64,000 nucleotides of DNA, taken from IMG/VR virus record IMGVR_UViG_2839610755_000024. One strand, written 5' to 3'. Each line of letters opens with the position of its first letter. Position 1 is the stretch's first letter. The DNA comes from a virus (Duplodnaviria > Heunggongvirae > Uroviricota > Caudoviricetes). The position numbers were made by a program. Positions 48,001 to 51,000 of the stretch are shown piece after piece.

Positions 48001-51000
48001 TACACGCTTGTGAATTTGTTAGGGCTAATTGTTTGTTTATTTTCAACTTTTTGCATTGAAGGAAGTTGAATCACCCCACGCTTTGCCAGACGTTCTATTG
48101 ATATTCTGACATTACCGTGTTGGCTTCCCACCAACTCAGCGATTTCAATGCTTGTCATTTTGATGGCATTGCTATTTATCAGCTCATTCATTGTCATGTC
48201 CTCTCACATTGAAAATTCAGCAATAAAAAACCCAGCCGAAGCTGGGTTTGTTAAGTTGTCAATTGTCAGTAGCGATGCAGTGAAGGCGGCAACTCTTTGT
48301 TCTTAAGCCTTTCCCATGCCAGAAGGTTCGTCGGCCCGTCAGGCTCATAAATATCTATATCCCGCGTGTGATTAATTAAAACGCCCCTCGCCCTCCCGAT
48401 GATATACGAGAACTCATAGCCGTAGTCGTGGCATATGCCGGAATAGCCAGACTGAATCAGTTTTAATGCGGGATACAACTCACGGAACAATGCCTGTGAG
48501 CGGTTGGCATAATCCCACAGCCATACAAGGCTGTCTGTTTCTTTTGCGGAAAGCCCGTTGAGCTTCTTCTCTTGTTTGCCAGTATTTTTCTCGCACTGGC
48601 TGAAATAGCAGTCTTCCAGTTTTTCGAACACTTCCCACGCCCGATCGGTTTCGAGCATTTTTGCGTGACGGGCTGCGCCGCGTTCTGTCCAGAGGATGAG
48701 GGAGCGGGCTTTCGGGGAAATTTGTAACCCTCTTAAAGATGGTTGCAAATTTTGTGAGTTACTTAAAGTAACCCGCAAATTTTGTGAGTTACTTAAAGTA
48801 ACCCGCAAATTTTGTGAGTAGTTTAAAGCTACCCGCAATTCTTTAAGGTCATTACCAACAACTTTGAAAAAGTGTTTCCCTTCAACGAAGCGTACTTTGT
48901 TCTCATGATGATTCTGGCGAATACGCACCGGCTCAGTGCCGTAAAGCTGCGCCAAAAGTTCGGTGGTAATAACAGGAATCTGGTTATGGGTGATCGGGGA
49001 GAGAGTTTCAACAGAAATTTTAGTTGTCATAATGACGCCCTCTGGTGGTTTCTTAATAACTCACCACCGACGACGCCAATCGTCTGGTGGTGAACTGTGC
49101 AGGGTTGGCGTAACCGGGAAACCGACCGGCGCGGATCTCTCCGCCCCCACACAGCCCACCATAATTCAGATGTGCGCGTGCATACGACAATAAAAAACAC
49201 GCTCGCGGCGTGTATCTGTCGCGGTCTCTATCCAGGACGCCAATCCCGACGCCAGATTTTGCTGGCGTTTGAGGAATATAGCCCCGAATAAATCATCACG
49301 TCAATCACCTTGTTTTCCTCGCACGATGTCTTAGCCACCGGATATCCCACAGGTGAGCCGTGTAATTGAAGGTTTTTACGTCAGATTCTTTTGGGATTGG
49401 CTTGCGTTTATTTCTGGAGCGTTTCGTTGGAAGGTATTTGCAGTTTTCGCAGATGATGTCGGTGATACTTCGTCGCTGTCGCCTCATGCAGCCCTCCTGA
49501 CGCCCAGCCCGATCGCCATCAATGCCGCTTTGGATACGGTAGTAAACATCCGTCGAGGACTGATGAACGGTCGCCAAATCAGCAACATTGAGCCTTTGCT
49601 GTTTCCCTTCTTCTCCAGCCCTGTCGATGGTTCGATAAAATTAATCCGTCCATCAGTGATGATGCGAACTTCGTCAACACTCTCCAGAGCCTTGCTGAAC
49701 CATCCGACAGACATATCCTCTGGCACAAGCATCACTACCGTCTGTCGCTGTTGTATGCACTGCTCAGCGGCTTTTTCCACCCACGGCCTGATATTGCTGT
49801 ACGGTGGGTTATTCCAGATTGCACCGTGGCTTATCCACTCAGAATTTAGCGCGTCGTCAGCCTCAGTTAGCCAGTGAGCGCACAGAGCGTTTTTGTCGCT
49901 CGCAGCTGAATCCAGCCAGAATCCAAACTCAATATCCAGCGCATCAAAAAGCCAGAGCGGCGTTTGCCAGCAGTCCTTGTCGTGTGCTGGCGTATTTGAT
50001 TTGATAGTCATGCAGCCTTCCCTTTTCGTTGTGACCATTCATACTCTCGCCGGGAGTCATCACTCCACCGCACGTTGCGCTCTGAGCCGAACCAGAACAT
50101 GATTTCGATAAGCTCAGTCATGCTGGCCTTTCGCATTTTGCTGGTACGCACGCCAAGCATGACAACGCCACCGTCGATACCAGGCGCACTTCTTTGCTCC
50201 AGTTTTTTGGTCTTAAGCCACAGGGCAGTGAACAGGTCTTTCCAGTCTTCCGGCGCCAGCCGTTGACCATGCCATAGCACCTGACGCGAAACATCGTTCA
50301 GCATCGGCCACATGCGGTCATTCTGCGCTTTGCTGCGCTTGGGTTCTTTAACGTGGACTTCGTGGGGTGACTTGTCGTCGATGGGTAGTGAGAGAATGGC
50401 GTCTATGGCGTTATTTCTGATTGCTTCGTTGCGAAGCAGAAAGGTTTGCTTCATCTCCTGCTCTCCGGTTCCATTTTTCAGTAGCCGCAGCAACTGATGG
50501 TGCCCATGCCACCCTGGCTTCACAGAGGTCACATTCTGCATAGCCCCACACATCAATATTTATTCCGGCCTCAACCCACAGACGAGCATTACCGCCGCAA
50601 AACGGACATTCTTTTAGCTTTGGCTGGGTTAATGATAGGTCGCTCATGCTCACTCCTTCACTTAAAATCCAGACTCCGGATAATTCTGTTGCGCTGAAAC
50701 TCATTGTTGAGTTTGAACAACCGTCGAAGAACACGGTCACGCGGATAGCGTCGTGCGGCAGGTGAATGCTCATACAACTCATCAAGCGGCAAACTGGACG
50801 ATGAACGATACCGATACCAACGCACCAACTCTTCACGAAAATTAGCCCTGACAAGCTCAGCTATCGTACTCATTTCTTAAAACCTCCTCAAACGCATTCT
50901 GACGCATTTTTCATTCTCGCTGCTTATCGGTATACCTTGCACGTGCTTACCTCACCACAGAGCGATTGTGATGCCTTAAAAGCGATTTATTGAAGTGATA

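Follow-up and report, generated by a model that had tools for sequence, protein, structure and literature searches.

A direct repeat in an Stx2c-type prophage joins the P22_AR_C domain to an intrinsic terminator at the ends of two antirepressor-family genes

The direct repeat shared by two antirepressor-family genes in the window, i.e. the whole stretch of 64,000 nucleotides of viral DNA analysed here, is composed of the known Pfam domain P22_AR_C (PF10548) and an intrinsic terminator. Our data strongly support a model according to which this unit is a mobile gene-end cassette (P22_AR_C plus terminator), present in the window as two old paralogues and exchanged patch-wise across E. coli prophages.

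Results

The prophage and its direct repeat

The window represents a prophage of the Stx2c type and is nearly the same in sequence as the phages 1717, 2851 and Stx2a_WGPS4 of E. coli O157:H7, its match with 1717 running in reverse orientation at 99.7% over 44.8 kb. It is without the ISEc8 of 1717, has a second IS629 and encodes exo, bet and gam. The two IS629 copies are in direct orientation, 1,319 nt in length and 99.8% identical. Both ORFs bearing the repeat, referred to as gene A and gene B, are located on the minus strand (Table 1). Gene A is annotated as 'anti-repressor Ant' in 1717 and 2851, and gene B in 1717 as 'similar to antirepressor of P22' with a link to VT2-Sakai ant. Between the two copies of the repeat lie, by the 1717 annotation, tail, head, terminase, lysis, stx2c, Q, ninG and roi genes.

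The repeat is present at the places and in the direct orientation described in the first-pass annotation, copy A spanning 19595-19949 and copy B 48226-48580, i.e. 355 nt in ungapped register at an offset of 28,631. In this register 288/355 positions (81.1%) are identical, the longest identical run being 29 nt, and gapped blastn of the window against itself results in 82.3% over 356 columns (E = 8e-97). Three parts can be distinguished, a 22-nt hairpin block, a short spacer and 315 coding bases. The coding part (19635-19949 in copy A, the last 315 coding bases) is identical to copy B at 259/315 positions; the earlier estimate of about 85% was therefore slightly high, yet the measured 82.2% is not well below it. 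The last 104 residues of the proteins are identical at 85/104 positions (82%, E = 9e-61), for which the description of the C-terminal domains as near-identical was too strong. Upstream of these 104 residues protein comparison of genes A and B yields no alignment, and the N-terminal halves do differ as described before, being P22_AR_N in gene A and ORF6N in gene B. Both P22_AR_C copies score above the PF10548 gathering score of 22.4 bits.

The 22-nt hairpin block AAAAACCCAGCCGAAGCTGGGT is common to copies A and B (22/22 identical), so the same terminator hairpin does follow both genes, the coordinates formerly given for copy A being off by one. On the coding (minus) strand the sequence of the hairpin is ACCCAGC-UUCG-GCUGGGU with a U run behind it. 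It has the features of a Rho-independent terminator, i.e. a stem of 7-9 bp with a UUCG loop and 5-6 U in a row after the stem. The terminator scan of the minus strand locates the copy B hairpin from 48249 to 48228 with 9 pairs and a T run. Downstream of P22 ant we found the hairpin ACCCAGCTTCGGCTGGGT with a T run, the same as after gene A, and the predicted folding energies of the copy A, copy B and P22 hairpins are about -15 kcal/mol each. An antiterminated polymerase would presumably read through both predicted terminators. The spacer separating the stop codon from the hairpin shows 7/17 matches in ungapped register, as would be expected from two single-base indels that compensate each other.

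Table 1. Features at the two repeat-bearing loci of the window
Feature	Position	Strand	Evidence
Intrinsic terminator after gene A	19595..19616	-	22-nt block identical to copy B; -15.6 kcal/mol
Cassette copy A (P22_AR_C coding; last 104 codons and stop of ant)	19635..19949	-	Pfam PF10548, 102.2 bits
Gene A, P22-type antirepressor Ant (P22_AR_N + P22_AR_C), 307 aa	19635..20558	-	Pfam, PHROG
sar-RNA-like antisense element over ant start	20558..20624	+	Rfam RF00262, below threshold
Arc-like ribbon-helix-helix gene, upstream of ant	20629..20802	-	Pfam Arc PF03869, 22.1 bits vs 20.4
Mnt-like ribbon-helix-helix gene, divergent from arc-ant	20886..21230	+	Pfam Arc domain, 72.9 bits
Roi homologue (Rha + ANT/KilAC), downstream of copy B terminator	47469..48197	-	ANT 108.7 bits
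Intrinsic terminator after gene B	48226..48247	-	terminator scan; -15.1 kcal/mol, z = -3.8
Cassette copy B (P22_AR_C coding)	48266..48580	-	Pfam PF10548, 83.3 bits
Gene B, ORF6N + P22_AR_C antirepressor-family gene, nin region	48266..49030	-	Pfam, PHROG
107-nt core of gene B, twice in JEONG-1266 nin locus, 930 nt apart	48600..48706	-	
30-nt tandem repeat in ORF6N domain, about three and a half units	48718..48837	-	

Gene A belongs to an immI-like module

Gene A, for which we used the ATG of the 1717 RefSeq record as start, has the P22 Ant family architecture of P22_AR_N (PF10547, 135.4 bits) and P22_AR_C (PF10548, 102.2 bits), gene B being without P22_AR_N, and matches PHROG 245 'anti-repressor Ant' (2e-108). 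It is part of an immI-like module (mnt-like, arc-like, sar-like, ant, terminator) inserted between the tail genes L and K. Related phage records call the product of the gene upstream of ant 'Arc-like repressor', and overlapping divergent promoter-like sites are found between the Arc-like and the Mnt-like gene (20801-20852). The sar-like element aligns with the full RF00262 model (1-68) at 29.5 bits compared to a gathering score of 43 (E = 0.003), and the terminator scan reports a 14-bp hairpin with a T run for it.

The module resembles P22 immI in the order of the divergent mnt-like, the arc-like and the ant gene and in gene A having both Pfam domains of P22 ant; the sar-like element, with a match below the Rfam threshold, is a putative counterpart of P22 sar. 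The cassette of gene A is 90% identical to that of P22 ant in amino acids and 88% in nucleotides, and the terminator hairpin is identical. In contrast to P22, where the module adjoins the podovirus tailspike gene with the terminator preceding gene 9, it is located here between L and K of a lambda-like siphovirus Stx2c prophage, and the Mnt-like protein comprises 114 aa whereas P22 mnt is a gene of 252 nt. Gene A would be expected to act as an antirepressor under Arc/Mnt/sar-type control.

Gene B is an ORF6N gene of the nin region adjacent to roi

Gene B combines ORF6N (PF10543, 66.8 bits) with P22_AR_C (PF10548, 83.3 bits) and matches PHROG 377 'anti-repressor Ant' (2.6e-85). Its earlier designation as Roi-like is wrong, as Pfam detects no ANT domain in it, and the HK022 Roi family architecture, i.e. 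a Rha-like N-terminus with an ANT/KilAC C-terminus, was not found in gene B by Pfam. The Roi homologue is its neighbour at 47469-48197, named roi in the 1717 record and homologous to a 241-aa HK022 ORF (85% identical in nucleotides), which we take to be the Roi of Clerget and Boccard.

Like the nin 'Ant' of phi24B, 933W and VT2-Sakai, gene B lies ahead of Q with roi and ninG downstream of it, and the published 82% identity between nin 'Ant' and P22 Ant in their last 104 residues fits gene B (PMC3064807); the likeness to phi24B Ant rests on position, on the published description and on the 1717 annotation. It differs from the nin 'Ant' of Stx phages in having a 30-nt tandem repeat inside ORF6N and in being equal to a fusion of two tandem ORF6N genes present in the nin locus of O157:H7 JEONG-1266. 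The tandem repeat is inserted where the ORF6N match extends over 114 residues for a profile of 86 positions, and length variants of it occur in other genomes. Gene B would be expected to act as an antirepressor made as a delayed-early pR product.

Of the JEONG-1266 pair, one gene shares its N-terminus with window gene B but not its C-terminus, and the other ends in a B-type cassette preceded by a different ORF6N part. Copy B is 100% identical in nucleotides to the cassette of this second gene and to that of the PhiR12_1 nin gene. The window is 100% identical to JEONG-1266 sequence L006 from 47400 to 48706 (L006 851-2157) and 99.9% identical from 48597 to 49400 (L006 2978-3781), the two genomes differing by an indel of 930 bp that has a perfect direct repeat of 107 nt at its borders. 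The simplest reading of the 930-bp difference would be a deletion through this perfect repeat, although the fused type is widespread (312 genomes). Gene B may be the recombination product of the two-gene locus, or the change may have taken the reverse direction.

The two cassettes of the window are old

We searched 50,697 phage records with the translated 104 residues of copy A. Identity is 97% in E. coli P22-like phages and 90.4% in Salmonella P22 and relatives; nin-region genes of Stx phages come next, a clear step lower at 81-82%. Nucleotide identities of the cassette are 88% between A and P22, 81% between A and B and 81% between B and P22. The Nei-Gojobori method results in dS 0.71, dN 0.106 and dN/dS 0.15 for A and B, and in dS 0.51 for A and P22. 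By sequence, copy A is the orthologue of the 3' end of P22 ant, and as judged from their divergence copies A and B are two old, long-separated sequence types under purifying selection.

These values bear on a recent duplication or gene conversion between ant and the nin-region gene of this very genome, which the first-pass annotation had brought up as a recent exchange. Such an event would account for two copies in one prophage, in direct orientation and with the terminator included, and a conversion did occur in PhiR12_1, in which both copies are 100% identical. For the window we consider it highly improbable: the copies are 81-82% identical with a dS of 0.71, the longest identical tract is only 29 nt, Salmonella P22 ant resembles copy A more than copy B does, and the sites at which P22 agrees with B against A are scattered without forming runs. 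The dS value and the proximity of copy A to Salmonella P22 ant argue against recent exchange within the window, which holds members of the common Ant C-terminal family without recent exchange. Copy A was also considered as a hidden mosaic and this was rejected, its differences from P22 at diagnostic sites being scattered with no runs.

Cassettes are exchanged in other prophages

PhiR12_1 has the same two loci, tail and nin. Its tail gene carries a Bro-N N-terminus, an A-type middle and A-type flanks on both sides, and the tail-locus cassette is 100% identical to its own nin copy and to window copy B. A literature search on PhiR12 returned nothing relevant. We mapped the 67 cassette sites distinguishing window A from B in nine sequences and obtained six mosaic patterns with different breakpoints, the flanks tracking the locus in every case among the handful of inspected loci (Table 2). 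Cassettes of other prophages are thus recombination mosaics, the window's own copies being unmixed. From the mosaics of these few loci we infer the number of independent exchange events that they may represent.

Table 2. Mosaic cassettes at the tail and nin loci (type and number of consecutive diagnostic sites)
Sequence	Locus	Pattern
PhiR12_1	tail	A5, then B62
ARS-C301	tail	A7, B18, then mostly A
NJS001	tail	B25, then mostly A
O103:H2 12009	nin	B8, A, then B14
CFSAN018748	nin	A, then B
FRIK944	nin	mostly A, then B14

The tail-locus gene type is present in 473 of 5,426 complete E. coli genomes, with a B-type cassette in 11/473, B-type at this locus being defined as at least 98% identity to the PhiR12_1 chimera. 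Below this group identities drop sharply to 92.9% and 91.4%, the latter being the window's allele. A nin-locus gene with an A-like cassette was found in at least 13 complete E. coli genomes. Some of the converted tail-locus alleles are in genomes with a single copy only, suggesting that exchange does not always take place within one genome or that the donor was lost later.

The A-type cassette (at least 90% amino acid identity) occurs behind four kinds of N-terminus, namely P22_AR_N, Bro-N, KilA-N and ORF6N, and more distant relatives include short proteins of single-domain size. An exhaustive representative search with the 104-aa domain returned 39 clusters and a word-indexed protein search mostly partial fragments. 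The domain shuffling proposed in the first-pass annotation is real, as the same module occurs on four different N-terminal domains and cassettes are A/B mosaics elsewhere.

Plain old paralogy, with vertical evolution at each locus and no exchange at all, would be compatible with the two clean types under purifying selection in the window, which do not contradict it, and with the family being a curated Pfam domain. It is unlikely in view of the six mosaic patterns, in which cassettes of mixed type sit within locus-specific flanks, of the B-type cassettes in 11 of the 473 tail-locus genes and of the A-type cassette on four unrelated N-terminal domains.

Discussion

The evidence favours the mobile gene-end cassette. 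According to this model copies A and B would not have arisen from each other in this prophage; the cassette would move from one locus to the other, and also among genes whose N-terminal domains differ, and exchange would proceed as patch-wise recombination within diverged sequence. The phage's own Red functions (exo/bet/gam) probably help the exchange, with Red as the putative recombinase. If the direct copies recombined by one crossover, the prophage would lose the genes from L to the head genes together with lysis, stx2c, Q, ninG and roi, and would be dead. As such a crossover deletes essential late genes, only conversion-like patches would survive.

Lambda Red/Gam was reported to recombine 22%-diverged genes efficiently and to largely escape mismatch-repair editing (PMC2327257). 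The mosaicism described here is similar to the homeologous lambdoid mosaicism of Martinsohn, Radman and Petit 2008 (PMC2327257) in that patches pass between sequences diverged by about 19% and the phages carry exo/bet/gam. It differs in involving two non-allelic loci in genomes of one kind, and in that conversion-like patches but no crossovers were recovered.

The geometry of the two copies led to the proposal that recombination between them would delete the genes in between. In its strong form the repeat would be a working deletion substrate, causing regular loss of 28.6 kb of late genes and stx and resulting in stx-negative defective prophages. The copies are indeed direct with the right geometry, and Red functions tolerate about 20% divergence (PMC2327257), but the predicted 28.6-kb deletion junction, assembled in silico as K gene, terminator, cassette, ORF6N part and upstream flank and searched with a cover of at least 80%, was found in 0/5,426 complete E. 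coli genomes. We regard a role as working substrate as extremely improbable. For stx-loss deletions, the IS629 pair in the window (1,319 nt, 99.8%) is a far better and much more plausible substrate than an 81%-identical repeat.

According to literature cited in PMC3064807, the repressor that P22 Ant inactivates is C2. A phi24B phage deleted for its nin-type ant showed, after induction with norfloxacin, about 27-56% of the wild-type late-promoter activity, which was partly restored on complementation (PMC3064807). A sequence search of solved structures gave nothing for gene A and chance-level matches only for gene B. AlphaFold predicts three helices for the 104 residues (pLDDT 77), and Foldseek of this model against the PDB gave no significant match (best E = 0.68), so that the P22_AR_C fold provides no functional lead. 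A speculative and quite improbable extension is that the cassette between the invariant GGCAAACAAGAGAAGA (GKQEK) motif and the equally invariant hairpin might be a dedicated swap unit, with A and B types differing in the prophage repressors targeted and conversion between tail and nin loci rewiring cross-induction. If this were true, conversion between an Arc/Mnt-controlled tail gene and a pR-driven nin gene would alter cross-induction among the numerous STEC lambdoid prophages and, through it, Stx output.

Shuffling of phage regulators in a 'Bro network' was reportedly described by Iyer et al. in 2002. Domain shuffling of the P22_AR_C type is published behaviour of this network (PMC10111431), and our data agree with it in the P22_AR_N, ORF6N, Bro-N and KilA-N partners as well as the proteins of single-domain size; nothing essential differs, and what we add are nucleotide-level breakpoints, two cassette types and two loci. 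Fogg et al. 2011 had reported 82% identity of the nin-type Ant and P22 Ant in their last 104 residues, with little similarity elsewhere (PMC3064807).

As a summary, the repeat is real but is ordinary phage mosaicism, consisting of a known domain and a terminator in a phage of a published type. The Pfam family, the annotation of 1717 and 2851, the 82% identity over 104 residues (PMC3064807) and the shuffling were all known before. The gain is modest and comprises a corrected label, as the gene of the nin region that bears the repeat is not Roi, the IS629 pair as the more plausible substrate of stx-loss deletions, and a clean case, resolved to the nucleotide, in which two non-allelic loci of lambdoid prophages exchange sequence in patches.

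Gene B and its two-gene counterpart

In E. coli O157:H7 JEONG-1266 two ORF6N genes stand in tandem, and sequence comparison shows gene B, the antirepressor-family gene of the nin region carrying ORF6N and P22_AR_C domains, to be equivalent to these two genes fused into one. The two loci are 100% and 99.9% identical in the two flanks and differ by an indel of 930 bp with a perfect 107-nt repeat at its boundaries, and the fused form is found in 312 of the 5,426 complete E. coli genomes. Gene B furthermore contains a 30-nt tandem repeat coding for [10 protein letters not shown], an insertion within the ORF6N domain with a copy number variable among phages and genomes. 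The gap upstream of gene B holds a terminator-like hairpin and a promoter-like site, which might be related to the low-level expression of ant reported for phi24B lysogens (PMC3064807).

Features located in the window and, where given, in the JEONG-1266 nin-locus sequence (L006)
Feature	Position	Strand	Context or basis
Sar-RNA-like antisense element	20558-20624	+	Rfam RF00262, 29.5 bits
162-nt tandem repeat, about 3.7 copies	28954-29558		Self-comparison
IS629, two direct copies	34324-35642 and 58470-59788		Self-comparison
107-nt repeat	48600-48706; L006 2051-2157 and 2981-3087		Perfect repeat
30-nt tandem repeat, about three and a half units	48718-48837		Within ORF6N domain of gene B
Terminator-like hairpin	49213 to 49197	-	270-nt gap upstream of gene B
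Promoter-like site, 10/12	49304 to 49275	-	270-nt gap upstream of gene B

Elements at ant and P22_AR_C chimeras

The start codon region of ant, the P22-type antirepressor gene, is overlapped by the sar-RNA-like element, which scores below the RF00262 gathering score of 43 and contains a 14-bp hairpin followed by a T run. Two unusual library proteins fuse part of P22_AR_C to other domains, i.e. the P22 tailspike head-binding domain (P0089) and LysR HTH and substrate domains (P0068); these chimeras could be rearrangements adjoining ant or artefacts of assembly or gene-calling.

Other repeats and large deletions

The units of the 162-nt tandem repeat are 91-97% identical and lie in a gene annotated in the published Stx2c phage 1717 as similar to the portal protein C-terminus. 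The IS629 copies, spaced 24.1 kb apart, show 99.8% identity over 1,319 nt. Phage 1717 differs from the window in having only the first IS629 copy and in carrying ISEc8, which the window lacks. For a large prophage deletion removing stx, the IS629 pair is a far better substrate than the 81%-identical direct repeat shared by the 3' ends of ant and gene B.
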